Below, one piece after another: positions 2,295 through 64,000 of a DNA stretch of 64,000 nt. Every line of letters begins with the position of its first letter. Position 1 is the stretch's first letter. Source of the DNA: an uncultured Acidobacteriota bacterium (GTDB lineage Bacteria > Acidobacteriota > Vicinamibacteria > Vicinamibacterales > SCN-69-37); assembly GCA_963730095.1 (NCBI GenBank), contig CAVSQJ010000002.1:1923779-1987778 (forward strand), read 5' to 3'. A program made the translations under genes and the position numbers. Under the pieces are notes generated by a model. That model saw nothing but the letters and a program-made list of their open reading frames with translations, did not search any database and was not told the DNA's origin.

Positions 2295-2749
2295 TGGCGA
2301 AGGAAAAACCGCAGGCGGATGCCGCGGCCGTTCCGGGTGCTGAGCCCGGCAAGGCGTCGACAAAGAAGAAGAAGACGTTCAAGAAGCGCGGCGAGAAGCG
2401 CGTCGTCCATCACGGCTTCGCGCACATCCACGCGTCGTTCAACAACACGACCGTGACGATCACCGACACGGACGGCAACGTCATCGCGTGGTCGAGCGCC
2501 GGCGGCATCGGCTTCAAGGGATCGCGCAAGGGCACGCCGTTCGCGGCGACCCAGGCCGCGATGGCCGCGGGCAATGCCGCGAAGACGTACGGCCTGCGAT
2601 CCGTCGAAGTGCGGGTGAAGGGACCAGGCGCGGGCCGTGAGTCGGCGATTCGCGCGCTCCAGACGGTCGGCATCGACGTGAAGTCGATTCGCGACATCAC
2701 GCCGATTCCGCACAATGGGTGTCGGCCACCAAAGAGACGTCGGGTCTAG
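2294..2749 (+). CDS. rpsK: 30S ribosomal protein S11
   Basis: 151-aa ORF with ...[18 protein letters not shown]...[13 protein letters not shown]...[20 protein letters not shown] overlap with rpsM. Confidence 0.95.
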
Positions 2750-5250: not shown

Positions 5251-5287
5251 AAAGTTAGAAGTTCGAAGCCAGAAGTTAGAAGTCAGC
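5251..5287. repeat. single-arm GAAGTYN heptamer array
   Basis: AAAGTTA GAAGTTC GAAGCCA GAAGTTA GAAGTCA lies directly after the rplQ stop. No complementary arm is nearby. Confidence 0.8.
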
Positions 5288-9061: not shown

Positions 9062-9299
9062 CATGAAGGACATGAAGGGAATGAAGGACATGAAGTAAGA
9101 AGTAAGAAGAACCGCCCGTCGATCTGACGGCTGCCGACGGCGGCCCGAGCGCGTGTCACGACGACCAAGAAACCAAGAGCGTTCCGCCTCTCACACGCTC
9201 GTGTTTCTTGCTCGTCGTGACAGGCGCGCCCGGCGAAGCCGGGCAGTCAGATCGACGGGCGGTTCCTTCATGACCTTCATTTCCTTCACGACCTTCATG
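9062..9299. repeat. 238-nt nested inverted-repeat element (CATGAAGGR repeat arms)
   Basis: Outer arms 9062-9127 and 9246-9299 include the exact pair GAACCGCCCGTCGATCTGAC / GTCAGATCGACGGGCGGTTC. Inner arms are ~9153-9181 and 9196-9223. No ORF. Lies between the EF-G stop and the mltB start. Confidence 0.9.
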
Positions 9300-11403: not shown

Positions 11404-11440
11404 AACGGGGATTCCTCCGGTACCGGGGAATCATATCAAC

Positions 11441-11508
11441 GGCAATCGGGCAATGGAGGATCTGCGATGGCAGGGCCATTGCCGATCCCCCATTGCCGAT
11501 TGCCGATT
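11441..11508. repeat. GGCAATC/GGCAATG short-repeat hairpin
   Basis: Left arm GGCAATCGGGCAATGG (11441-11456). Right arm CCATTGCCGATCCCCCATTGCCGATTGCCGATT (11476-11508). The right arm overlaps the stop of the upstream permease gene. Confidence 0.8.
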
Positions 11509-12787
11509 ACTCGTACCTGAGCGCCTCGATCGGGTCGAGGCGCGACGCGCGGATGGCGGGCACCATCCCGAAGAACACGCCGACAAAGGCCGAGAAGCCG
11601 ATGCCGATCGCGAACGACCACCAGGGGAGCGAGACGGGGAAGCTGGTGAAGGTGTGAATCAAGAGCCCGATGAGGCTCCCGAGCGCGATGCCGAGAATGC
11701 CGCCGAAGGAGGTGAGCACGACGGCCTCGATCAGGAACTGCCAGAGGATCTCGACGCGGCGCGCGCCGAGTGCCTTGCGCACGCCGATCTCGCGCGTTCG
11801 TTCGGTCACGCTCATCGTCATGATGCTCATGACGCCGATGCCGCCGACCATGAGCGCGATCGACGACAGCACGACGAGCGCGAGAAATGCGCCCTGGCTG
11901 ACCTGATCCCACACCTGCAGGATCGCGTCCTGCGTGACCATGTCGAAGTCGTTCGGCTGGTCGAGCCGCAGCCCGTGCCGCACGCGCATCGTCGTCTCGA
12001 TCTCCGTGAGCACCTCGTCGCGGGGCACGCCCTCGCGCGGCACGGCGGAGATCTGCACGCTCCGAAGCTGGCCGCGGGCCTGATCGTTGGCCTTGATCCC
12101 AAAGTGCTTCTCGTACTCCGTGTACGGAATGATGACGAAGTCGTCCTGCCCGAGGTTGAAGCCGCCCGGGCTGGGCCGCTGGGCCATCACGCCGATCACT
12201 TCGTACGAGTCGAGGCCGATGCGCACGCTCTTCCCGATCGGATCCCCGTTGGGAAAGAGCGCCGTGTACGGCGTTTGCCCGAGGATCGCGACGTTGCGGT
12301 GGTGCTGCACTTCGGCGCTCGTGAAGAAGCGGCCTTCCTCGACCTCGAGCCGCACGGCGAACGGCCACCGCTCGGTCGTGCCAAAGACGATGATCGGCTT
12401 GGTGTGCGAATCTTTGTAGTACACACGCTGCATGGGCGCGCCGAAGCCGCCGCCGCCGAGCGTGATGTCGACAACCTCGATCGACGGCAATCGGCCGATT
12501 GCGTCGGCGTCGTCGACCGTCACGTTCGGGCGGCGGAGCAGGTCTTGCAGCTTGGCGCCCGAGCTCAGGCTCACGCCCGAGAACTTCGCGACGAAGATCG
12601 TGTCCGGTCCGATGCCGCGAATCAGGTCGCGGAAGGACTGATCGAATCCTCGGATGAGCGATGTCATGCCGACGATCGACGTGATGCCGATGACGACGCC
12701 GAGGACCGTGAGGGCCGAGCGGAGCTTGTTGCCGCGCAGCGTGTCCCACGCCATCGTCACGATCTCGAAGAAGAGGCCGCGTCGCAC
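11507..12787 (-). CDS. ABC-type efflux permease, MacB-like periplasmic core + FtsX domain (no ATPase domain)
   Basis: 426 aa with N-terminal TM (LRSALTVLGVVIGITSIVGM), a large periplasmic domain and a C-terminal 3-TM FtsX-type domain (...TREIGVRKALGARR...). Confidence 0.85.
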   Translation of the reverse strand: MRRGLFFEIVTMAWDTLRGNKLRSALTVLGVVIGITSIVGMTSLIRGFDQSFRDLIRGIGPDTIFVAKFSGVSLSSGAKLQDLLRRPNVTVDDADAIGRLPSIEVVDITLGGGGFGAPMQRVYYKDSHTKPIIVFGTTERWPFAVRLEVEEGRFFTSAEVQHHRNVAILGQTPYTALFPNGDPIGKSVRIGLDSYEVIGVMAQRPSPGGFNLGQDDFVIIPYTEYEKHFGIKANDQARGQLRSVQISAVPREGVPRDEVLTEIETTMRVRHGLRLDQPNDFDMVTQDAILQVWDQVSQGAFLALVVLSSIALMVGGIGVMSIMTMSVTERTREIGVRKALGARRVEILWQFLIEAVVLTSFGGILGIALGSLIGLLIHTFTSFPVSLPWWSFAIGIGFSAFVGVFFGMVPAIRASRLDPIEALRYE

Positions 12788-26977: not shown

Positions 26978-27270
26978 CGCGCCCCGGGCACTCGGGCTCG
27001 GCTGACGGCCTCGCCGGCGGCCTTACATAACCGTAACGCTCCAGCAAATCCCGGGCCTCTCGTGCGGTCCAGGGCCGCGCTTCCGGCCTGAATCCACCAT
27101 CCAGGTCGCGCGGTCGCTGGAACGATCCTTGCGCCTGAACCCTGGTCTCCCGCGCGGCAGGAACTGCGATCCGGCCAGACCGTGAGGTACGCACTTTCTG
27201 CGACGCCCTCGCGTTTCAGGCCGGAAACAGCGGGCCGACGATGGATCGTCCGTTGCTTTGATCGGACGCC

Positions 27271-27843
27271 ATGCGGAAGGCGGGTGACGCGGGATTCAGT
27301 CTCGTGGAAGTGCTGGTGGCGATGTTGATCATCACGCCGGCGGCGATTGGCGCGGCGGGTCTGGTGACGGTCGCTGTCGCCGCGGTGCGCGACGCGCGAG
27401 TCGAATCGACGGCCGTCGTGCTCGCGTCGCAGAAGCTCGAACAACTGCGCACGCTCGAGTGGAACGCGGACGATCTGGGGCGCGGAGGATCGGTGACGAG
27501 CGATATGGCGACGGACCTGACGCGTGACCCGGCGACGAGAGGCGGCGCCGGGTTGAGCGCCTCGCCGGCTGGCACGCTCGCGGGCAACCTGCCGGGCTTC
27601 GTCGACTATCTGGACGCCGCCGGCGCGTGGATAGGTACCGGGCCGATGCCGCCGCCGCGGGCAGTGTTCATCCGGCGATGGGCGGTGACGCCCCTGCCGG
27701 ACGATCCGGCGGACACGCTGGTGCTTCAGGTGCTCGTGACCAACGTCACGCGCGACGCCGGTGTTCGGCATGGTCCGGGCAGGCGCGCGAGGCTTGGGAG
27801 CGAAGCGCTCGTGACGACGATTCGGACGCGGACGTCGAGGTAG
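27271..27843 (+). CDS. minor pilin (prepilin-type N-terminal cleavage/methylation domain; PilV/GspI-like)
   Basis: Leader MRKAGDA-G|FSLVEVLVAMLII. 190 aa. Confidence 0.8.
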   Translation: MRKAGDAGFSLVEVLVAMLIITPAAIGAAGLVTVAVAAVRDARVESTAVVLASQKLEQLRTLEWNADDLGRGGSVTSDMATDLTRDPATRGGAGLSASPAGTLAGNLPGFVDYLDAAGAWIGTGPMPPPRAVFIRRWAVTPLPDDPADTLVLQVLVTNVTRDAGVRHGPGRRARLGSEALVTTIRTRTSR

Positions 27844-37911: not shown

Positions 37912-37990
37912 GAAGTCGAAAAGTCGAAAAGTCGAAAAGTCGAAAAGTCGGGAAGTCGGGAAGTCGGGAACTGGAGAAGTCGGGAAGTAG
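37912..37990. repeat. ~10 tandem 8-nt units (AAGTCGAA x4, AAGTCGGG x3 and variants)
   Basis: GAAGTCGA AAAGTCGA AAAGTCGA AAAGTCGA AAAGTCGG GAAGTCGG GAAGTCGG GAACTGGA GAAGTCGG GAAGTAG. No complementary arm is present. Lies ~110 nt upstream of smc. Confidence 0.9.
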
Positions 37991-38097
37991 CGCAGTAGCG
38001 CGGGCTATCACGCCCTGGCGAGCGTTCCCAGCCGCTTGAGCGTCGACGCGCGTGTGTCGACCGAAGCGGCTGTTTGTGTGTACAGGGTCAAGGCCAC

Positions 38098-41000
38098 ATG
38101 AGACTGTCGAGACTGCACATCGCTGGATTCAAGAGCTTTCCGGATCGCGCCGAGCTCGGCTTCGACCACGGCGTGACGGCGATCGTCGGCCCCAACGGCT
38201 GCGGCAAGAGCAACGTCGTCGACGCGATTACGTGGGTGCTGGGCGAGCAGAGCGCGAAGAGCCTGCGCGGCGAGCGCATGGAAGACGTGATCTTCAGCGG
38301 CAGCGACGCGCGCAAGCCGACGGCGGCCGCGGAAGTCCGCCTCAAGTTGAGCGACGTGGCGCAGGCTGCGATGACCGACGCGACGGCGGCGCTCGCCGTG
38401 CCGCCCGACGCGCTCCTCGACGAGCGGCCGCTCGTGACGAAGGACATCGAGATCGGCCGCCGGCTGTATCGATCCGGCGAGAGCGAGTACCTGATCGACG
38501 GCGAAGTGTGCCGGCTGCGTGACATCCACGATCTGCTGATGGACTCGGGGCTCGGCGTCAAGGCATACGCCGTGATCGAGCAGGGCAAGATCGGACAGAT
38601 CCTCTCGTCGCGGCCCGGCGAGCGGCGCGCGCTGATCGAGGAAGCCGCCGGCGTCACGAAATACAAGTCGCGTCGTCGTACGGCGGAGCTGAAGCTCGAG
38701 GCCGCGCAGGGGAACCTGACGCGCATCGACGACATCATTTTCGAGGTCGAGAAACAGCGCGGCGCGCTCAGGCGGCAGGCCGCGCGCGCCCGGCGCTACA
38801 AGCGGCTGCGCGAGGAGCTGCGGCGCTGGGAGCAGGTGCAGTTCGCGCGCCGGTACGACGCGCTCGCCACCGACATCGAGCAGGCGGAGCGGCGGCTCGA
38901 GGAAGCGCGGGCGCGCGAGGCCGCGGCATCGGCGCACGTGGCCGAGCTCGAGACGGCCCTCGAGGCCGTGCGCCTGGGCTTGACCGGCGCCGAGGCCGGC
39001 GCGACCGAAGCGCGCGAGGCCGCGCACGCCCGCGAGCTCGACATCGGCCGGCGTCAGCAGCAGATCGAATTCGACAAGCAGCAGATCGACGAGCTGGCCC
39101 GTCAGGCCGAGACGCTCGCCGGTGAAATCAGCGACCTGACCGGCCGGCGCGACCCGGCGCAGCTCGCGATCGAAGCGCAGCGCGAGGCCGCGGCGCGAGC
39201 GCGGCAGGCGCTCGAGGACGCGGGCCGCGAAGTCGCGGCGCGCGAGGCCGAGTACCGCCAGGCGCTCTCGGCGGTGCAGGACGCGGAACACGAAGGCGAC
39301 GAGACGCGCGCGGCTTCGCTCGCGGCGACGACGACGCTCGGCGCGCTGCGGCAGGCGCGCGATCACGCCACTGCCGTGCGCGACCGCGTCGCGGCCGAGC
39401 GCGAGAAGCTCGACGTGGAAGGCCGCGATCTGGAACGCGAAGCCGCGCGCGCGAGTGCCGATCACACGCAGGCCGCCGAGTCGGTCACGTCGGCTCGCGA
39501 GGCGATCGCGGCGGCCGGCGCCGCTCGCGTCGCCGCCGAGGCCGCGCTCCAGGCCGAGCGCGCCGCGCGCACGCTGCTCGGCAACGCCATCGCGTCGCGC
39601 CAGCGCGACCTGGCCGGGCACGAAGCCGCGCTCGAGTCGTTCGAGCGGCTGACGGCCACCCGCGCGACGTTCGGCGACGGCGCGCGCTTCCTGCTCGCCG
39701 AGTCCGGTGACGCCGTGCGCCAGCAGGGCGCCGTGGCCGATCATCTCCAGGTCGAGCGCACGTTCGAGCGCGCCGTCGATGCTTTGCTTGGCGATCTTCT
39801 GCAGCACGTCATCGTCGAGCGCGTCGCCGACGTCGCCAATGCGCTGGCGGTCGCCTCCGAGCGCGGGGCCGGGCACTGCGGCTTCGTGGTGCTCGAGGAT
39901 CTCCCGGAACGGCCCGCGCCGCCGTCGATCCCTGTGCCCGCCGCCGCGCGCGCGCTGTCGACAGTGGTCACCGCGACCGGACCGCACGCGGCCGGGCTTG
40001 GCCGCCTCGTCGGCGAGGCGCTGATCGTGAGCTCGTTCGACGTCGCGGCGACGCTCTCGCGCTCGACGGCTGTGCCGGTGGCGACGATGGCCGGCGAAGT
40101 GTTCAGAGGCGGCGGTCTCGTCGAAGGCGGATCGCTCGCCGACGCGCGCGGCATCTTCGAGACCCGCGGCGAGACTGAGCGGCTGCGCGAACAAGTCGCA
40201 CAGGGCACCGCCGAGCTCGACCGCATGACGAGCGATGGCGCCGCGCTCGACGCCTCGCTCGCAGCCCACCAGACCGCCATCGCGGCGGCCGTCGACGAGC
40301 AGCATCGGCACGAGAAGGCCGCGGTCCTGTTCGAGGCGCAGGTCGATCGCGCGGCCGAAGAGCTCGCCCGCGCGAACCGGCGACTCGACGTCGTGCGCAC
40401 CGAGCGCGGAAGGGCGGAGGAGGAAGAGCGCGCCGCCGACAAGCGCCGCGAGGAATCGACCGCCGCGATCGCGATGCACGAGACCGCGCAGCGTGGCGCG
40501 GCCGATCGGCTGGGCGACGTCCTCGCCAGGCTTCAGCAGGCGCGCGAGGCCGCCGAGGTCCGCACGCGCGAGGTGACCGAGGCGCGCGCGGCGCAGGCGG
40601 GCCTCATCGAGCGCACGTCCGCGCTCGACACCGACGTCGTCCGCCTCGACGATGCCGCCCGCGAACTGGAGGCGCGCATCGCCGCGCGGACCGAGGAGTC
40701 CGGGCGCAACGCCGCGCGGCGCGAGGAGCTGCGCCGGTCGGTTCGCCAGACCGAAGGCCTGCTCGACGAGGACGTGCGCGTGCTCGACGTCCTCAAGCAG
40801 GAAGTGCGCGCGCTCGACGAGCGCGTCACGGCGCTGCGGACGGACTTCAGCGCGCGCGAGCACGAAATTCGCGGCGCGAGACACGCGTTCGAGGCGGTCC
40901 GCAACGAGCTCACGCAGTCGGAGGTGGCTCGCGCGACCGCGGCGTCCGACCTCGCTCATTTGACCGCCGCCTGCGTCGAAGCCGTCGGGCTTCAGCTCGA

Positions 41001-41823
41001 CGAGGTCGTCGCGGCCGTCGCGAAGATGGAGGAGGCCGGCGAGCTCGTCGCGCCCGCACGCCGCGTGGCCGCCGTCGCCGCCCCCGACGAAGACGAAGAG
41101 GAGACGTCCGGGCCGGAGGCCGGTGCGTCGTTGCCGGCCGAAGCCGCGCCGCCCGACGGCGCGCTCGACGAGTCGGGCCCGGTGAGCCCCGAGGACGTGA
41201 TCGCCGACCTGCGGCGCAAGATCGAACGCCTCGGGCCGGTCAACATGATGGCGATCGAGCAGTTCGACGAGCTCGAAACGCGCCACACGTTCCTCACCAC
41301 GCAGCGCAAGGATCTCCTCGACTCGATCGCGCAGACCGGCGAGGCGATCCGCAAGATCGACAAGACGACGCGCGAGCGCTTCGCCGAGGCGTTCGAGTCG
41401 ATCAACAAGAAGTTCGAGACGACGTTCACCACGCTCTTCGGCGGCGGCCGCGCCGGGCTCGTGCTGATCGACATCGAGAACGATCCGGAGAGCGGCATCG
41501 ACATCATCGCGCAGCCGCCCGGCAAGCGCCTCCAGAACGTCCAGCTGCTCTCGGGCGGCGAGAAGGCGCTCACCGCGATGGCGCTGATGTTCGCGATCTT
41601 CCAGCACCGCCCGAGCCCGTTCTGCCTGCTCGACGAGATCGACGCGCCGCTCGACGACGCGAACATCGGCCGGTTCGTCGAGATGCTCCAGAATATGCAG
41701 GCGCATACGCAGTTCATCCTCATCACGCACAACCGCAAGACGATGGAAATCGCCGACCGGCTGTACGGAGTGACGATGGAGGAACCGGGCGTATCGAAGC
41801 TCATTTCGCTGCAGCTCAACTAG
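38098..41823 (+). CDS. smc: chromosome partition protein Smc
   Basis: ATG at 38098 (MRLSRLHIAGFKSFPD). Walker A GPNGCGKSN, long coiled coils, a hinge, signature LSGGEKALTA and Walker B FCLLDEIDAPLD. Confidence 0.96.
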   Translation: MRLSRLHIAGFKSFPDRAELGFDHGVTAIVGPNGCGKSNVVDAITWVLGEQSAKSLRGERMEDVIFSGSDARKPTAAAEVRLKLSDVAQAAMTDATAALAVPPDALLDERPLVTKDIEIGRRLYRSGESEYLIDGEVCRLRDIHDLLMDSGLGVKAYAVIEQGKIGQILSSRPGERRALIEEAAGVTKYKSRRRTAELKLEAAQGNLTRIDDIIFEVEKQRGALRRQAARARRYKRLREELRRWEQVQFARRYDALATDIEQAERRLEEARAREAAASAHVAELETALEAVRLGLTGAEAGATEAREAAHARELDIGRRQQQIEFDKQQIDELARQAETLAGEISDLTGRRDPAQLAIEAQREAAARARQALEDAGREVAAREAEYRQALSAVQDAEHEGDETRAASLAATTTLGALRQARDHATAVRDRVAAEREKLDVEGRDLEREAARASADHTQAAESVTSAREAIAAAGAARVAAEAALQAERAARTLLGNAIASRQRDLAGHEAALESFERLTATRATFGDGARFLLAESGDAVRQQGAVADHLQVERTFERAVDALLGDLLQHVIVERVADVANALAVASERGAGHCGFVVLEDLPERPAPPSIPVPAAARALSTVVTATGPHAAGLGRLVGEALIVSSFDVAATLSRSTAVPVATMAGEVFRGGGLVEGGSLADARGIFETRGETERLREQVAQGTAELDRMTSDGAALDASLAAHQTAIAAAVDEQHRHEKAAVLFEAQVDRAAEELARANRRLDVVRTERGRAEEEERAADKRREESTAAIAMHETAQRGAADRLGDVLARLQQAREAAEVRTREVTEARAAQAGLIERTSALDTDVVRLDDAARELEARIAARTEESGRNAARREELRRSVRQTEGLLDEDVRVLDVLKQEVRALDERVTALRTDFSAREHEIRGARHAFEAVRNELTQSEVARATAASDLAHLTAACVEAVGLQLDEVVAAVAKMEEAGELVAPARRVAAVAAPDEDEEETSGPEAGASLPAEAAPPDGALDESGPVSPEDVIADLRRKIERLGPVNMMAIEQFDELETRHTFLTTQRKDLLDSIAQTGEAIRKIDKTTRERFAEAFESINKKFETTFTTLFGGGRAGLVLIDIENDPESGIDIIAQPPGKRLQNVQLLSGGEKALTAMALMFAIFQHRPSPFCLLDEIDAPLDDANIGRFVEMLQNMQAHTQFILITHNRKTMEIADRLYGVTMEEPGVSKLISLQLN

Positions 41824-41824
41824 C

Positions 41825-42176
41825 GGGCTTAAGGCTTAGGGCTTAAGGCTTAGGGCTTAAGGTGATGACCTGGGATTCCGGTTCTGAAGCGTTTGAGCGG
41901 CTTTGAGGAGACTGGCTTGGACGGCCTCGTACGTTGACGACGAGAGCGTCGGCGGCTTGAAAGGCTGACAGGCGTCGGTGATCTCTGCTCATGAGGGTCC
42001 ACTGAGCAAGCGATGTGCCGAAGGCAATTCGGGCTCTTTGTTGGGAGAGGGGCGCTCGACGTTGCAGAAACTGCCTACTCGCGAGGCCGCCTGCTTTGCA
42101 GGTTCTGCAACATCTCCGGCCACGGTTCGGAGCCCCAAGCCCCAAGCCCCAAGCCCCAAGCCTTAAGCCTTAAGCC
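41825..42176. repeat. 352-nt element: GGCTTAR heptamer arm and complementary CCCCAAG/CCTTAAG arm bracketing a ~270-nt core
   Basis: Left arm 41825-41862 reads GGCTTAA GGCTTAG x5. Right arm 42131-42176 reads AGCCCCA x4 then AGCCTTA x2. It fills the whole smc-M48 spacer. The core contains the internal inverted repeat GTTGCAGAA...TTCTGCAAC. Confidence 0.9.
41843..41992 (-). pseudogene. possible remnant of a four-helix-bundle (23S rRNA intervening-sequence protein family) gene
   Basis: The minus-strand ATG at 41990-41992 opens MSRDHRRLSAFQAADALVVNV(Y). This resembles the typical N-terminus of that family (..DHR.L.af..A..l...vY). Similarity is lost after ~22 aa. Recognised from memory, not searched. 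Confidence 0.3.
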
Positions 42177-43295
42177 ATGAACGAAACCAAAGCCTCCCGC
42201 TACCAGCGCCTGCGCCGCCGCGCGCAGTCGAGCGGCGTGGTGTCCGGCGGGCTGATGCTCGCGCTGGTGGCGCTGACCCCGGCCGCGCGCGCGATCGCTG
42301 ATTGGGCCGGCGGCTTCGGACGGACCGCCGGTGGATGGCTTGGCGGCGTCGTCTCGCTCGTCCTTTTCGTCGGCGTGCTCGTGCTGCTGTGGGAGATCGC
42401 GGCCCTGCCGTCGATGCTGTACCTGGGCCTGCGCGTGGATCGCCGGCACGGCCAGAGCGGTCCGACGCCGGGGGATGTCTTCGCGGCGCAGGCGCACGCG
42501 GCGGTCGTCGCCCTGCCGTTTGCGCTCGCGGCGGCGGCCATCGTGATGGTGTCGGCGTGGGCGGCCGGAGGGTGGTGGTGGGCGCTCGCCGGCGGGTTGC
42601 TGGCGATCGTGCTGGGCGCGGCGCTCCACGGAGCGCCCGCCGCGCTCGCGCGGTTCGCCGAGGTACGGCCCGTCTCGCGCCCCGATCTCGCCGCCTTGCT
42701 CGAGGACCTCGCCCGTCGCGCCAGCGTGCGAGTGGCGGGCATCGACGAGTGGCGCGCCGCCGACGCGGGTCCGACCACGGCGCTCGTCACCGGGTTCGGC
42801 CGCACGCGGCGCATCTTCATCTCATCGGACGTCATACGAGACTGGTCCGACACCGAGATCGCGGTCGTCGTCGCGCACGAGCTCGCGCACCACGCGCATC
42901 ATGACTTGCTGCGGACGCTCGCGCTCGACGCCCTCGTCCTCTCGTGCGGGCTGGGCGCGGCGGCGGCGGTTTTCAGTGCCGCGCCGGCTGCCGGCGCGGC
43001 GGGCGAGCTGTCGACGCTGCCGCTCCTCGCCCTCATCGCCGGCGGCGTCTGGATTGCAGCGACGCCGTTACGCCACGCGCAGTCTCGCCGGCACGAGCGG
43101 CGCGCGGACTTGTTCGCGCTCGTGACGACCGGAGGCGCCGAGGCGTTCAGCGCCGCGATTCGCCGGCTGGGCGCGCGGCACCTCGCCGAGGAGCGCCCGA
43201 CCGCCGTCACGCGGTGGCTTTTTCATCGCCATCCGACCGTTGCCGAGCGCCTCGCGATGGCCGAGGCGTACCGGCAGCTGCGCGCGCAAAGCTAG
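42177..43295 (+). CDS. M48-family zinc metallopeptidase (membrane)
   Basis: 372 aa with several TM helices, an HExxH motif (VVAHELAHHAHHD) and a downstream E (RRHERRAD). Confidence 0.85.
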   Translation: MNETKASRYQRLRRRAQSSGVVSGGLMLALVALTPAARAIADWAGGFGRTAGGWLGGVVSLVLFVGVLVLLWEIAALPSMLYLGLRVDRRHGQSGPTPGDVFAAQAHAAVVALPFALAAAAIVMVSAWAAGGWWWALAGGLLAIVLGAALHGAPAALARFAEVRPVSRPDLAALLEDLARRASVRVAGIDEWRAADAGPTTALVTGFGRTRRIFISSDVIRDWSDTEIAVVVAHELAHHAHHDLLRTLALDALVLSCGLGAAAAVFSAAPAAGAAGELSTLPLLALIAGGVWIAATPLRHAQSRRHERRADLFALVTTGGAEAFSAAIRRLGARHLAEERPTAVTRWLFHRHPTVAERLAMAEAYRQLRAQS

Positions 43296-45857: not shown

Positions 45858-46026
45858 GGGAGATTGGGGATGGGAGATTGGGGATGGGAGATGGCCGATG
45901 GGAGATGGCCGATGGGAGATGGCCGATGGGAAATGGCCGATGGGAAATGGCCGATGGGAGATGGCAATCGGCAATCGTTCAATCTGCCAATTCCACCACC
46001 AATCACCAATCTCCCATCATCAATGG
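45858..46026. repeat. ~8 tandem 14-nt units (GGGAGAT+GGCCGAT type) plus short complementary arm
   Basis: GGGAGATTGGGGAT x2, GGGAGATGGCCGAT x3, GGGAAATGGCCGAT x2, then GGGAGATGGCAATC. The arm CAATCACCAATCTCCCATCATC follows at ~46001-46022. Lies between the pnp stop and the cupredoxin start. Confidence 0.9.
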
Positions 46027-48261: not shown

Positions 48262-48293
48262 GTCAGAGATCAGAGGGCAAAGGGCAGAGGGCA
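48262..48293. repeat. CAGAGRG heptamer array in the rpsO-pnp spacer (GCCCTCT-type on the sense strand)
   Basis: GTCAGAGAT CAGAGGG CAAAGGG CAGAGGG on the plus strand. It ends 8 nt from the pnp start codon. Confidence 0.8.
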
Positions 48294-49601: not shown

Positions 49602-49660
49602 GGCAATGGGAGATGGGAGATGGGCAGATGGGCGATGGGCGATGGGCGATGGGCATGGGA
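49602..49660. repeat. GGGAGAT/GGGCGAT heptamer array
   Basis: GGCAAT GGGAGAT GGGAGAT GGGCAGAT GGGCGAT x3 GGGCAT. Begins immediately upstream of the truB start codon, in the nrnA-truB spacer. Confidence 0.85.
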
Positions 49661-51342: not shown

Positions 51343-51421
51343 AAGTCGTAAAGTCGGGAAGTCGATAGGTCGAGAAGTGAACCCTCATGTCACGCGGTCG
51401 ACTTCTCGACTTCTCGACTTT
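51343..51421. repeat. AAGTCGRR octamer hairpin
   Basis: Left arm AAGTCGTA AAGTCGGG AAGTCGAT AGGTCGAG AAGTG (51343-79). Right arm GTCGACTT CTCGACTT CTCGACTT (51397-51421). Fills the infB-DUF503 spacer. Confidence 0.88.
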
Positions 51422-54170: not shown

Positions 54171-54199
54171 CTGAACTTCAAACTTCTAACTTCAAACTC

Positions 54200-54210
<11 letters not shown>
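54171..54210. repeat. single-arm AACTTC-type heptamer array (GAAGTT-type on the sense strand)
   Basis: CTGAACT TCAAACT TCTAACT TCAAACT CCTAACT TCC. Overlaps the last codons and stop of nusA, in the nusA-infB spacer. Confidence 0.85.
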
Positions 54211-55589: not shown

Positions 55590-55723
55590 GAACTGACCTC
55601 GGGTCAGGCCCGGCTGACGCCATTCGGGGCCAGACCCGCGCTCACACCACCGGCCCGAACTGGCCTCGGGTCAGGCCCGGCTGACGCCATTCGGGGCCAG
55701 ACCCGCGCTCACACTGCCGGCCG
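55590..55723 (-). repeat. tandem duplication (2 x 67 nt, 4 mismatches) of the GGGTCTGACCC-type double-palindrome element (copies 3 and 4)
   Basis: Copy at 55590-55656 and copy at 55657-55723. The reverse complement of each contains GGGTCTGGCCCC-GAA-TGGCGTCAGCC-GGGCCTGACCC. Together they fill the rimP-nusA spacer, sense-oriented relative to the operon. Confidence 0.9.
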
Positions 55724-61405: not shown

Positions 61406-62824
61406 TTAGCGATCGACGACCGACGCGACCAGGTCGTACCCCTTCGCGCCGGTGACCCGGACCGAGACCATCTGGCCTGACGCGAGCGTCGCCGGGTCGC
61501 AGTCGGAGAGGTACACGACGGCGTCGATGTCGGGCGCCTGGCCCTCGAGGCGGCCCTGCAGGACGAGCGGCGATTCGGGCGACGGGCCGTCGACCAGCAC
61601 GCGGACCGTCTCGCCGAGCCGAGTCTTGTGCTTGCGCGCGACGATGTGCTTCTGCAGGCGCATCACGCGGTCGCGGCGCGCGGCCTTGACGCCGGCCGGG
61701 ACGTCGTCGTCCAGCGCGTGCGCGCGGGTGCCTTCCTCGTGCGAGTACGTGAACACGCCGACGTGATCGAACTCGGTGGCGCGGACGAAATCGAGGAGCG
61801 CCTCGACGTCCTGCTCGGTCTCGCCGGGGAAGCCGACGATGAACGTCGTGCGAAGCGTCACGCCGGGCACGCGCGCGCGGATGCGCGCGAGCAGTTTGTC
61901 GTACGTTTCGCGATTCCCGGGCCTACGCATGCGACGGAGCACCTCGGCCGACGCGTGCTGCAGCGGCAGGTCGACGTACTTGCACACCTTCTCGCACTCC
62001 GCCATCGCGTCGAGGACGTCGTCGGTGATCGTCGTTGGGTAGAGGTAGAGCAGGCGGATCCACTCGAGGCCGTCGACGTCGTTGAGGCGGCGGAGCAGCC
62101 GGGCCAGCGCACCGCGCTCGCCGCGATCGATCCCGAAGAACGTCGTGTCCTGCGAAATCAACAGCAGCTCGCGCACGCCCTGTGCCGCCAGGCGCTCGGC
62201 CTCGACGACGATCGAATCCTCGTCGCGGCTGCGGTACGAGCCGCGCAGCGTCGGGATGATGCAGAACGCGCACGTGTAGTCACAGCCCTCCGCGACCTTC
62301 ACGTACGCGTAATGGCGCGGGGTCGTCAGCAGACGCGGAGTGCTGGCGTCGTAAAGATAGGTTGGTTCCGGAGGGTTCCCAGGGGTTCCTGGGGGTTCCA
62401 TTGGGTTCCGGTTCGCCTGCTTCAGCTCAGCGCGGGACTTGAAGAGCTGAAGGGGCGCCGCCGTTGAGCGAGCGGCTGTCGATCCGCCGATCGCGCCGAC
62501 GATTTCTGGCACCTCGCCTGTGCCCAGCACGACGTCGATCTCGGGAATCTCGGCCTTGAGCTGATCGCGATACCGCTCCGCCAGGCAGCCCGTGACGATG
62601 AGCCTGCGGCATGCGCCGTCGCGCTTGAGCTGCGCCATCTCGAGGATGGCGTTGATCGACTCCTCCTTGGCCTTGTCGATGAACGCGCAGGTGTTGACGA
62701 CGATCGCGTCAGCCTTCGTCGGCGTCGGCCGTGATCTCGTGCCCCGCGTCGCGCGCGAGACCGAGCATCACCTCGCCATCGACGAGGTTCTTGGGACAAC
62801 CGAGGGAGACGAAGCCTAGTTTCA
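61406..62824 (-). CDS. rimO: ribosomal protein S12 methylthiotransferase RimO; compensating frame breaks (~62712 surplus nt, ~62640 missing nt)
   Basis: The N-terminus MKLGFVSLGCPKNLVDGEVMLG...ADADE is in the same frame as ORF 61406-62638 (radical SAM CDYTCAFC, TRAM). The conserved ADAIVVNTCAFIDKAKEESINAIL between them is in another frame, with an in-frame TGA. Confidence 0.9.
62360..62416. repeat. degenerate GGGTTCC (GGAACCC on the sense strand) short tandem repeat inside rimO
   Basis: GGTTGGTTCC GGAGGGTTCCC AGGGGTTCCT GGGGGTTCCA TTGGGTTCC GGTTC. It encodes NRNPMEPPGTPGNPPEP, an in-frame insertion. Confidence 0.8.

Positions 62825-62850: not shown

Positions 62851-64000
<1,150 letters not shown>

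Follow-up and report, generated by a model that had tools for sequence, protein, structure and literature searches.

Intervening sequences (IVSs) in rRNA that carry an open reading frame (ORF) have been known since 1993, and their origin, their spread and the role of the encoded protein remain unresolved. The ORF-bearing 23S rRNA IVSs of Leptospira, Coxiella burnetii and Azospirillum lipoferum (locus L089 in this study) are alike in holding a PF05635 gene between complementary ends that pair as a long stem. In Coxiella, variable tandem heptamers of the unit GACAGAT precede the S23p ORF, and the stem is where RNase III cuts (PMC4990558). Decay of the Coxiella ORF has been reported. Members of the PF05635 family also occur dispersed within operons, cas loci for example (PMC3936711).

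Intergenic tandem 7-mers have been described separately as GGGAATC in Xanthomonas (70–75 convergent pairs), STRR and GGGGAYT in cyanobacteria and TAACTGA in Beggiatoaceae. These arrays often form inverted pairs, differ in their number of units and are frequently found directly at start or stop codons, and they were taken as G-quadruplex or regulatory elements, with no link to PF05635 drawn (PMC4692102, PMC4679880). One Xanthomonas array, of four GGGAATC units, abuts XCC0516 (PMC4692102, supplementary file 2), which is the crystallised PF05635 protein and forms pentamers. Avd of the diversity-generating retroelements shares both this Pfam family and its four-helix-bundle fold. Integron cassettes (an ORF plus attC), REP/BIME elements and MITEs are likewise small intergenic units with imperfect inverted repeats, in which structure is conserved over sequence.

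Here we describe the spacer between smc and an M48 peptidase gene in a window of 64,000 nucleotides, which is the whole stretch of DNA that was analysed. We consider it probable that this spacer is a degenerate copy of a conserved armed module consisting of palindromic boxes, a sigma-54-type promoter and a PF05635 gene, with processing at the RNA level being inferred. Like the IVSs, the element has tandem heptamers in its termini, and like the Coxiella IVS it has a decayed ORF. However, it lies outside rRNA, between two protein genes and antisense to both, whereas an IVS is inserted in helix 9, 25 or 45 of 23S rRNA, and an Rfam scan of 41000–43000 found no rRNA and no other family; strictly speaking, it is therefore no IVS. 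It further differs from IVSs in having a predicted sigma-54-type promoter and palindromic boxes of its own, and its arms are longer and purer heptamer arrays that run exactly from stop codon to start codon.

The smc–M48 spacer and its repeat arms

The spacer measures 352 nt (41825–42176), from arm to arm, and has the following features and flanks.

38074–41823, plus strand: smc (PF02463 SMC_N, 1.2e-66, plus SMC_hinge), flanking context
41825–41862, no strand: left arm, GGCTTAA/GGCTTAG x5.3 (Tandem Repeats Finder, period 7, 5.3 copies)
41857–41937, minus strand: C-terminal gene remnant, ending in YEAVQASLLKAAQTLQNRNPRSSP and a stop codon (subfamily HMM E=0.36, HMM positions 100–119)
41930–41992, minus strand: N-terminal gene remnant, ATG then MSRDHRRLSAFQAADALVVNV (subfamily HMM E=2.1e-6, HMM positions 1–24)
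42005–42020, minus strand: predicted sigma-54-type −24/−12 element, cGGCACatcgcTTGCt, with its GC 13 nt ahead of the ATG
42061–42077, no strand: promoter-proximal palindromic box, consensus GTTGCAG-N3-CTGCAAC, centre ~77 nt upstream of the ATG
42095–42111, no strand: promoter-distal palindromic box, one mismatch to the consensus
42131–42176, no strand: right arm, AGCCCCA x4, AGCCTTA x2, AGCC (Tandem Repeats Finder and inverted repeat)
42177–43295, plus strand: M48 peptidase gene (PF01435, 2.9e-16), flanking context

The smc stop codon TAG (41821–41823) lies 1 nt ahead of the left arm, and the right arm abuts the M48 ATG at 42177. A first-pass annotation of this DNA had described a spacer that opens with five GGCTTAR heptamers and closes, at the M48 start codon, with six heptamers of complementary type (four AGCCCCA and two AGCCTTA); both descriptions were base-exact, at 41825–41862 and 42131–42176, respectively. 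Positions 41826–41862 consist of three GGCTTAA units alternating with two GGCTTAG units and followed by GG. When read in the sense of the ORF, the left arm is the 3ʹ arm (TTAAGCC/CTAAGCC) and the right arm is the 5ʹ arm (two GGCTTAA, then four GGCTTGG). Tandem Repeats Finder recovered both arrays at period 7, with 5.3 and 4.6 copies and 86–100% matches, and a repeat search gave the arms as a 33-nt inverted pair with 88% complementarity, in which 42137–42176 partners the left arm.

The neighbouring genes encode an S41 peptidase, SMC, M48, a TPR protein and PNPase. In independent contigs from three soil runs, the right arm was two units (14 nt) shorter. A sigma-70 scan detected no promoter, PADLOC detected no defence family and phage records gave no match. 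The spacer is annotated as a pseudogene plus a hairpin.

Gene remnant and predicted promoter

The minus-strand ORF 42145..41843 holds an internal ATG at 41992–41990 followed by MSRDHRRLSAFQAADALVVNV, as the first-pass annotation had read it. When a subfamily HMM built from 30 members was searched against all six frames of the whole window (1442 segments), the N- and C-terminal pieces were the best and second-best matches, respectively. Relative to the N-terminal piece, the C-terminal one is read in the +1 frame, and the left arm provides its stop codon, TAA at 41859–41857.

It had also been proposed that similarity stops after the N-terminus, so that the gene looked truncated or decayed. The decay stands, but the stop does not, as similarity resumes over the last ~20 codons in the +1 frame, and the damage is therefore an internal deletion rather than a truncation. 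Window positions 41931–41873 share 73% DNA identity with the 3ʹ end of the full-length gene of L003 (described below), the deletion junction is at ~41939–41931, and ~249 nt of L003 are absent from the window copy. On the evidence of these alignments, ~250 nt of the middle of the gene is deleted out of frame, leaving codons 1–21 and the last ~20 codons (~41 of ~120 residues); the promoter region and both arms also survive. The helix-2 motif R-x3-S-x3-N-x2-E, whose residues R42, S46, N50 and E53 were invariant across 30 aligned relatives, falls in the deleted segment, indicating that the window copy is a pseudogene and not a functional member of the family.

The fragment by itself was not recognised by general models. 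The check suggested in the first-pass annotation, a search with the Pfam and TIGR02436 profiles, failed on the fragment: neither the ORF fragments of the window nor a fused 45-aa N- plus C-terminal read-through gave an hmmscan match in Pfam or NCBIfam at E ≤ 10, and phmmer of the fragment against the PDB gave nothing. These empty Pfam, NCBIfam and PDB searches, and the absence of an Rfam match, would suit a chance similarity of the peptide, the spacer being then a structured non-coding region or holding an unrelated small protein or sRNA. We give this explanation almost no credence and regard it as effectively refuted, since the site, strand and arms are shared with full-length genes at three related loci, the HMM match (E=2.1e-6) was obtained against the whole window with the C-terminal piece as runner-up, and the DNA-level alignment extends over the promoter and boxes. 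The earlier identification as a remnant of a gene for a 23S-rRNA-IVS, four-helix-bundle protein is thus upheld by the same-site full-length genes, the subfamily HMM and the identity of 18 of 24 residues between the window peptide and the L002 protein. The fragment is a genuine remnant of a PF05635/TIGR02436 gene, an assignment that rests on synteny and the subfamily model.

Upstream of the remnant, 42005–42020 reads CGGCACATCGCTTGCT, with one mismatch to TGGCAC-N5-TTGCW, and is the only match in the window to TGGCAC-N5-TTGCT at one mismatch or less. Of the 78 homologous loci, 50 have the motif GG-N9-TGC 12–18 nt ahead of the start codon, compared to an expected 1.7%, and the free positions of this motif yield GGCAC…TTGC. 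As the GC lies 13 nt ahead of the ATG, a leaderless or near-leaderless mRNA is predicted, with transcription expected to start no more than ~3 nt from the ATG. The distal and proximal boxes pair as a 17-nt hairpin; boxes occur at ~−85 and ~−118 in 18 of the 25 long-leader loci, ~70–110 nt upstream, and are missing from 41 of the 42 short-leader loci. Sequence comparison thus finds the putative −24/−12 element and the boxes conserved across the subfamily. The boxes are candidate activator sites, and RpoN dependence is inferred. A box and −24/−12 site of similar kind accompany the pilin-like gene at 27271, which makes an activator of the PilR type the first candidate.

Related loci and the association of arms with the gene family

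At three Vicinamibacterales-like loci, L002, L003 and L004, the smc–M48 site contains the gene at full length on the minus strand, in the order smc stop, GGCTTnn arm, minus-strand gene, nnAAGCC arm and M48 ATG. The M48 protein of L002 is 72% identical to that of the window. The PF05635-type protein of L002, read across one frameshift (a single base at ACGACATC, which may be a sequencing error), matched PF05635 at 2.3e-27 (95.7 bits against a cut-off of 33.8) and TIGR02436 at 4.7e-25 (87.9 bits against a cut-off of 24).

The fold was assessed on the intact orthologue from L003, P0001, and not on the broken window copy. The AF2 model of P0001 had a pLDDT of 91.6 and four helices, and Foldseek aligned it with 2GSC (TM 0.94), 2RLD (TM 0.88) and 4DWL (Avd; TM 0.87). 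A profile search of the PDB also gave 2GSC (2.4e-32). The expectation of a four-helix bundle like XCC0516, BT_0352 and Avd is met by this predicted structure, for the intact orthologue only. Sequence similarity to Avd was weak (PHROG Avd, 5e-5 to 2e-4; NCBIfam DivGenRetAVD, 5e-4), and in contrast to Avd the cassette has no phage context; neither a reverse transcriptase nor TR/VR or 100-nt-scale direct repeats of a diversity-generating retroelement were found near the element. The dN/dS values in 18 orthologous pairs were 0.06–0.19, from which the intact copies are judged to be under purifying selection; the Coxiella ORF, by contrast, is believed to be silent.

The first-pass annotation had suggested that such genes may travel with such arms, and had held that the idea would fall if intact homologues were never arm-flanked. 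Arms were scored as ungapped inverted repeats; RNAduplex on 260-nt flanks failed to separate real from shuffled sequences in this GC-rich DNA. In 54 of 62 unique intact loci, the upstream/downstream repeat scored above every shuffle, which runs counter to that refuting outcome. Further, 47 of the 62 loci exceeded the 95th percentile of cross-locus pairings, indicating that arms match within, not between, loci; the arm units themselves differ from locus to locus. In this respect, and in bracketing one gene family, the arrays of the cassettes differ from the repeats described in Xanthomonas, cyanobacteria and Beggiatoaceae.

Up to 350 nt from the gene, arrays with a period of 7 or 8 reached 2.5 per kb, ~9 times their density at greater distance (0.28 per kb). 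GGCT-type units made up 106 of the 143 arrays near the gene, 13 of the 42 far from it and none of the 13 elsewhere in the window. Tandem 7–8-mer arrays stood on both sides of each of the 14 plasmid-borne PF05635 genes examined, clearly inverted in 11; these genes are from Calothrix, Nostoc, Pseudanabaena, Picosynechococcus, Leptolyngbya, Anabaena, Geminocystis, Oscillatoria, Trichormus and Gemmatirosa, and one true 23S rRNA IVS is included. In Nostoc punctiforme, NPUN_RS33770 is bracketed by CAGGAGT arms. L089 (Azospirillum lipoferum AZO_p2) is an ORF-bearing insert in 23S rRNA (Rfam LSU, 1015 bits), and its inverted arms are heptamer-periodic (CAGAGGA/CGGATGA). As intact relatives in several phyla, and one true IVS, have this arm–gene–arm layout, the genes appear to travel with the arms, a proposal that is now strongly supported. 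The family is very large, its profile matching 29,354 clusters at 50% identity.

It could still be argued that the arms are not part of the module, being intergenic, slippage-grown, terminator-like hairpins of this lineage, in whose loop a promoter plus gene landed, or which are the only sites to tolerate an insertion. Gene-free hairpins are indeed frequent. The window holds 13 other period-7/8 arrays with different unit types and without a gene remnant; several form inverted pairs around a short loop. Related loci have one such array per ~3.6 kb of flank. In the smc–M48 spacer, L101 has a gene-free hairpin with another unit (AGGCAnn/nnTGCCT), and L001, L100 and L102 have a plain hairpin; contigs of run X1 share the GGCTTA arms of the window with loops of only 31–33 nt. 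As heptamer hairpins without a gene are common in the genome and one sits in the L101 spacer, arms can exist without the gene. Moreover, arms adjoin the end of a gene in 64 cases and the start in only 24, and gene ends are the usual position of terminators. However, the enrichment of GGCT-type units beside the gene is not explained in this way. Arm and gene also occur together in four phyla and within 23S rRNA, where a prior heptamer hairpin is not expected; the nearest relatives have neither arms nor gene at the smc–M48 site; and the stop codon of the gene lies within the arm at 28 of 72 loci. We therefore regard independent hairpins as unlikely, and retain the arms as a component of the module.

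Near-identical cassettes in different contexts were not found, and cassettes at least 72% identical always shared their flanks, so there is no direct evidence of mobility. No target-site duplication surrounds the window element (its borders read CTAGC before the arms and ATGAA after them), and no recombinase or transposase was found near it. Compared with integron cassettes, REP elements and MITEs, the element lacks an integrase, attI, a transposase and a target-site duplication, and its arms are tandem microsatellites without near-identical copies at different sites. A MITE or insertion sequence was rejected on the grounds that arm units differ by locus, target-site duplication is lacking and similar cassettes share flanks.

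Folding and possible role of the arms

The 360-nt spacer was predicted to fold at −171.9 kcal/mol on the plus strand (z = −4.7) and at −159.5 kcal/mol on the minus strand (z = −5.8), with the arms as the outer stem in both cases, and none of 100 shuffles reached the real fold energy on either strand. Together with the 33-nt, 88% complementary arms, these z-scores satisfy the IVS criterion of complementary termini forming a long stem. Since inverted arms flank most of the family members examined, including a true IVS, we take the element as the extra-ribosomal counterpart of an ORF-bearing IVS.

If read-through RNA from smc to M48 is made, the arms would be expected to pair as a 35–45-bp duplex. 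By analogy with IVS excision from pre-23S rRNA, this duplex may be an RNase III-type substrate, and the cassette might be excised from, or insulated from, the host RNA; such processing of the stem is inferred, the cleavage itself being known from the literature for true IVSs only. The other suggestion of the first-pass annotation, that the repeat hairpins of this genome may be IVS-like excisable or processed modules, is speculative; the 13 other period-7/8 arrays in the window differ in unit type and lack a gene remnant. The tandem-repeat nature of the arms would keep them paired after gain or loss of units. Intact copies would presumably use their own RpoN-dependent promoter to produce a leaderless mRNA of the gene. 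In the window copy, in which the gene is dead, any remaining activity would be that of the hairpin, in processing or termination. Because the arms enclose the predicted promoter, the transcript of the cassette itself would have the 3ʹ arm only and the stem is possible only in read-through RNA.

In the arms of the window, L002 and L003, imperfect pairs are G·U on the ORF-sense strand and A·C on the other. Selection on the arms as sense-strand RNA was considered and rejected, as 30 loci favoured sense and 28 antisense (Wilcoxon p=0.77, 63 loci). This lack of strand preference fits RNA in either direction and a role at the DNA level equally. The sequence of the locus was found only in soil DNA metagenomes; RNA runs shared 5–8% of words, from conserved smc only.

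The arms might instead act as DNA, as a cruciform, a site of replication pausing or a substrate for recombination leading to inversion or deletion of the cassette, and not as an RNA stem. Arm complementarity without strand bias and a promoter inside the arms, whose mRNA cannot form the stem, are compatible with this, as are the internal deletion of the window copy, the loss of the whole element in relatives and the variation of arm unit numbers between samples. On the other side, no recombinase or transposase lies nearby, strand-switch or inversion joints were absent from four metagenome runs, and all four smc–M48 cassette copies have one orientation. Moreover, the rRNA IVS, the sole experimentally studied relative of this layout, acts at the RNA level (PMC4990558). 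We consider a DNA-level role a slim prospect, and the armed module with inferred RNA processing remains our preferred reading.

The rule that emerges is that the gene lies between inverted tandem 7–8-mer arms, which differ between loci and match within a locus; it held in most loci examined, in Acidobacteriota, Gemmatimonadota, Cyanobacteria and the true Azospirillum IVS. If confirmed, it would make IVSs and the dispersed "S23 ribosomal protein" genes one kind of element and give unexplained heptamer microsatellites of several phyla a function-linked context. It would also explain the frequent breaks of metagenome contigs at PF05635 genes, and open the biology to testing by RNase III mapping, by rpoN dependence and by assays of whether the protein binds heptamer hairpins. 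A broader reading, which we offer tentatively and with more doubt than belief, is that PF05635 genes are everywhere carried by hairpin-armed cassettes of a single class, so far unrecognised, that rRNA IVSs are the copies that landed in rRNA and that heptamer arrays are tied to an Avd-like protein. Were this true, the cyanobacterial, Xanthomonas and Acidobacteriota arrays would be mechanistically tied to that protein, which might bind, protect or propagate heptamer hairpins, and the cassette might spread via an RNase III-excised RNA intermediate.

Two minor observations concern stop codons at the arms. Among the host-gene ends that abut arms, TAG was in excess (45 of 64). About half of the heptamer units contain a stop codon, close to the ~37% given by a rough hand estimate of chance, so the idea that units are selected for their stop codons was dropped.

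Organization of the smc-M48 spacer

The spacer between the smc and M48 peptidase genes of the window (G+C content 67.6%) is lined by two heptamer arrays, both detected by Tandem Repeats Finder, and a repeat search of the window returned these arms as a 33-nt inverted repeat with 88% complementarity. Every anatomical detail of the first-pass annotation, namely the arms, their boundaries and a minus-strand ATG followed by MSRDHRRLSAFQAADALVVNV, was confirmed in the sequence. The features are as follows.

38074-41823, plus strand: smc (PF02463, 1.2e-66), with the TAG stop at 41821-41823
41826-41862: left arm, GGCTTAA GGCTTAG GGCTTAA GGCTTAG GGCTTAA GG, opening the spacer
41992-41990, minus strand: ATG of the N-terminal piece of the gene, continuing with MSRDHRRLSAFQAADALVVNV
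42005-42020, minus strand: sigma-54-type site CGGCACATCGCTTGCT, one mismatch to TGGCAC-N5-TTGCT, its GC 13 nt 5ʹ of the ATG
42061-42077 and 42095-42111: palindromic boxes, consensus GTTGCAG-N3-CTGCAAC, 5ʹ of the sigma-54-type site
42131-42176: right arm, AGCCCCA x4, AGCCTTA x2, AGCC, its last base adjoining the M48 ATG
42177, plus strand: ATG of the M48 peptidase gene (PF01435, 2.9e-16)

When the spacer was folded, the arms formed the outer stem on both the plus strand (-171.9 kcal/mol, z -4.7) and the minus strand (-159.5 kcal/mol, z -5.8), with no shuffle equaling either value. The right arm was two units shorter than that of the window (14 nt; 42131-42144) in independent soil-metagenome contigs from runs X1, X3 and X4. 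Other contigs of run X1 had the GGCTTA arms joined (41857/42132) across unrelated loops of 31-33 nt, indicating that armed hairpins of the GGCTTA type exist without the arm-gene-arm cassette.

Identity of the gene remnant

The first-pass annotation had read the minus-strand ATG as opening a remnant of a 23S rRNA intervening-sequence (IVS) protein gene. The check that it proposed, a Pfam/TIGR02436 profile search, came out empty: the window fragments had no match in Pfam or NCBIfam at E<=10, nor any in the PDB. With the M48 protein as the query, one genome per species was scanned, which yielded two relatives. At the locus L002, on an Acidobacteriota MAG chromosome with an M48 protein 72% identical to that of the window, the smc stop is followed directly by arms that read GGCTTAA GGCTTGG…, by a minus-strand gene of 400 nt, and by AGCCCCA x15, AGCCCTA x2 and the M48 ATG. 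Read through one single-base frameshift, the gene product matched PF05635 (2.3e-27) and TIGR02436 (4.7e-25), and its N-terminus was identical to the window peptide at 18 of 24 positions. The frameshift (~2640-2650, minus strand, ACGACATC) lies just 5ʹ of the NIVEG motif in an otherwise full-length gene, and may be a real early pseudogene mutation or a sequencing error. Two further loci, L003 and L004, found via relatives of the L002 protein, have the same smc-gene-M48 order and the same arms.

A subfamily HMM built from 30 relatives was run with filters off on the complete six-frame translation of the window (1442 segments). The N-terminal piece was the best match (HMM positions 1-24, E=2.1e-6), and the second best was STYEAVQASLLKAAQTLQNR, immediately downstream of it in the adjacent frame (E=0.36, HMM positions 100-119). 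In the alignment with L003, the gene start corresponds to 41994-41939 and the gene end to 41931-41873, while ~249 nt of the L003 gene between these segments are absent, indicating that the window gene was destroyed by an internal, out-of-frame deletion. Judged on comparative sequence evidence, the question of whether the spacer holds an IVS-protein gene remnant is settled, with the three full-length genes and the subfamily HMM supporting it; the annotated decay stands, whereas the alternative of truncation fails, as the C-terminal piece is present.

The AlphaFold model of the intact L003 orthologue was a confident four-helix bundle (pLDDT 91.6) with a disordered arm-encoded tail, and its closest structures were XCC0516 (TM 0.94), BT_0352 and the diversity-generating retroelement protein Avd (TM 0.87). 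Because the conserved R-x3-S-x3-N-x2-E core is deleted, the copy in the window is no functional member of the family; the locus is a pseudogene plus a hairpin. Nor is it strictly an IVS, as it lies outside rRNA. It belongs, in decayed form, to an extra-ribosomal variant of the ORF-bearing IVS module that is equipped with a sigma-54-type site.

Arms and predicted promoters of homologous genes

A metagenome scan gave 80 loci with relatives of the gene, 62 of them unique and with enough flank on both sides. The upstream/downstream inverted repeat scored above every shuffle in 54 of the 62, and 47 scored above the 95th percentile of between-locus pairings, indicating that the arms are complementary within a locus and differ between loci. 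The units were mostly GGCTnnn (TGG, TAA, CCC, CAG, TCA, TTA and others), with some unrelated 7- or 8-mers. The density of period-7/8 arrays within 350 nt of the gene was about nine times that found beyond 600 nt. The 3ʹ arm began at a median of 4 nt past the stop codon, and the stop lay inside the arm in 28/72 loci.

More complex arm sets, in L005 (2740-3720), L020 and L090, had the 5ʹ arm repeated in direct orientation 3ʹ of the gene, followed by the inverted partner, or a complete hairpin on one side; the direct-orientation match was stronger than the inverted one in L005, L008, L022 and L078. In L003-L085, the arms usually started at the stop codon of the neighboring gene. This was TAG in 45/64 arm-adjoining gene ends, often as TAG|GCT…, vs 14/40 in a crude window gene set. 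Host genes may have their stop codons supplied or overwritten by the array.

CGGCACATCGCTTGCT was the best sigma-54-type site in the window. Among 78 unique homologous loci, 50 had GG-N9-TGC with its C 12-18 nt 5ʹ of the start codon (1.7% expected), and the positions left free read GGCAC…TTGC. An mRNA with no leader, or almost none, is predicted from this geometry. The boxes recurred at about -85 and -118 in 18/25 long-leader loci and were missing from 41/42 loci whose arm adjoins the promoter. Their placement is where sites of enhancer-binding proteins would lie, with no evidence on what binds. A second sigma-54-type site, TGGATCGTCCGTTGCT (27242-27257, region 27189-27271), precedes by 13 nt the ATG of a pilin-like ORF of 190 aa (MRKAGDAGFSLVEVLVAM…), whose neighbors are genes for a prepilin peptidase and an N_methyl pseudopilin; GTACGCACTTTCTGCGAC, ~60 nt upstream, is similar to the cassette box. 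Cassettes and type IV pilin genes may share an activator.

In other phyla, family members turned up in a tblastn search of plasmids, from Gemmatirosa, Azospirillum and ten genera of cyanobacteria. Period-7/8 arrays flanked the ORF on both sides in all 14 plasmid loci examined, 11 clearly inverted. Several plasmid-borne genes lay inside operons (cas6|gene|cas4; cmr2|gene|cmr3), in agreement with an earlier report of the family in cas loci (PMC3936711). L089 lies within the Azospirillum lipoferum 23S rRNA (Rfam LSU, 1015 bits) which makes it a genuine IVS with an ORF; the heptamer period is present in its arms (CAGAGGA CGGATGA CAGAGGA CGGAGGA and the complement), which is decisive evidence that the layout extends beyond the Acidobacteriota lineage. 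The suggestion that such genes travel with such arms thus held in every data set examined (54/62 metagenome loci and 14/14 plasmid loci, L089 among the latter); the finding of the first-pass annotation is real and its main interpretation supported.

In the Coxiella IVS, the ORF is preceded by two to three GACAGAT repeats, the first being where RNase III cuts (PMC4990558), and a GGGAATC x4 array adjoins XCC0516, a crystallised family member, in Xanthomonas (PMC4692102, supplementary file 2). These two published facts had never been connected, and a full-text literature search found no statement of a general association between PF05635 genes and heptamer arms. The locus exposes a simple, apparently general arm-gene-arm rule for a protein family that is very large (29,354 clusters at 50% identity) and whose function is unknown.

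Proposed function of the arms and history of the site

Whereas the anatomy and its conservation were observed, their mechanism is inferred. RNase III is known to excise the arm-gene-arm layout from rRNA. Pairing is, on the simplest reading, what the arms are for, as their sequence varies while complementarity is kept and rRNA contains this layout as well. Any RNA that crosses the element would have its arms paired as a 35-45-bp duplex, which RNase III could cut, separating the cassette from the host RNA; this is inferred without transcript data. Tandem-repeat arms would still pair after slippage, in any register. Since the arms enclose the predicted promoter, the stem is possible only in read-through RNA. 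Arm pairing showed no general strand bias (30 vs 28 loci, p=0.77), so that a DNA-level role is not excluded.

The leading alternative is that the gene inserted into host hairpins, which now form its arms. Heptamer hairpins without the gene do occur in the window genome and, at the smc-M48 site itself, in L101, and arms prefer gene ends (64 vs 24). However, unit type was enriched near the gene, with GGCT-type units in 106/143 arrays close to it, 13/42 far from it and 0/13 of the window's other arrays; the layout in rRNA also speaks against host hairpins.

The smc-M48 site in relatives (M48 identity to the window)
P0123, 84%: 39-nt spacer
L001, 83%: 52-nt spacer; plain hairpin, smc end paired with spacer
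L100, 80%: 79-nt spacer; hairpin of the L001 kind
L102, 75%: 49-nt spacer; hairpin of the L001 kind
L101, 73%: arms-only hairpin of a different unit (AGGCAnn)
L002, L004 (and L003), 72%: full cassette
L103, 70%: heptamer array on one side only
L104 and L105, 70% and 65%: without arms or gene

Cassettes with >=72% identical proteins always had the same flanking genes, with dN/dS of 0.06-0.19 in 18 such pairs; intact cassette genes are long-resident, vertically inherited and under purifying selection, not recently hopping. The divergence between the window and L002 cassettes was about that of the host genes, which fits an ancestral cassette, lost later in some lineages and decayed in that of the window. 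Re-acquisition by recombination cannot be excluded. In L001 (2920-3000), L100 (1391-1500) and L102 (1421-1500), the final ~15 nt of the smc reading frame (GAAGCTCATCTCGC) pair with a complement in the spacer.

Other intergenic tandem 7-9-mer arrays of the window lie at 2758-2846, 9062-9299, 11440-11510, 45858-46024, 51343-51420 and 62860-62945, and further ones at 5252-5283, 37912-37988, 48274-48293, 49602-49659, 54174-54207 and 62364-62411. None of these was GGCT-type or held a PF05635 remnant; their units include GAAGTnn, GGCRATn, CATGAAGGA and more. Several are inverted pairs with short loops, and one of them, at 9062-9299, surrounds a core of 155 nt that forms a long nested hairpin of its own. 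At 55590-55722, an intergenic spacer contains two tandem copies of a 67-nt unit with 95% identity.
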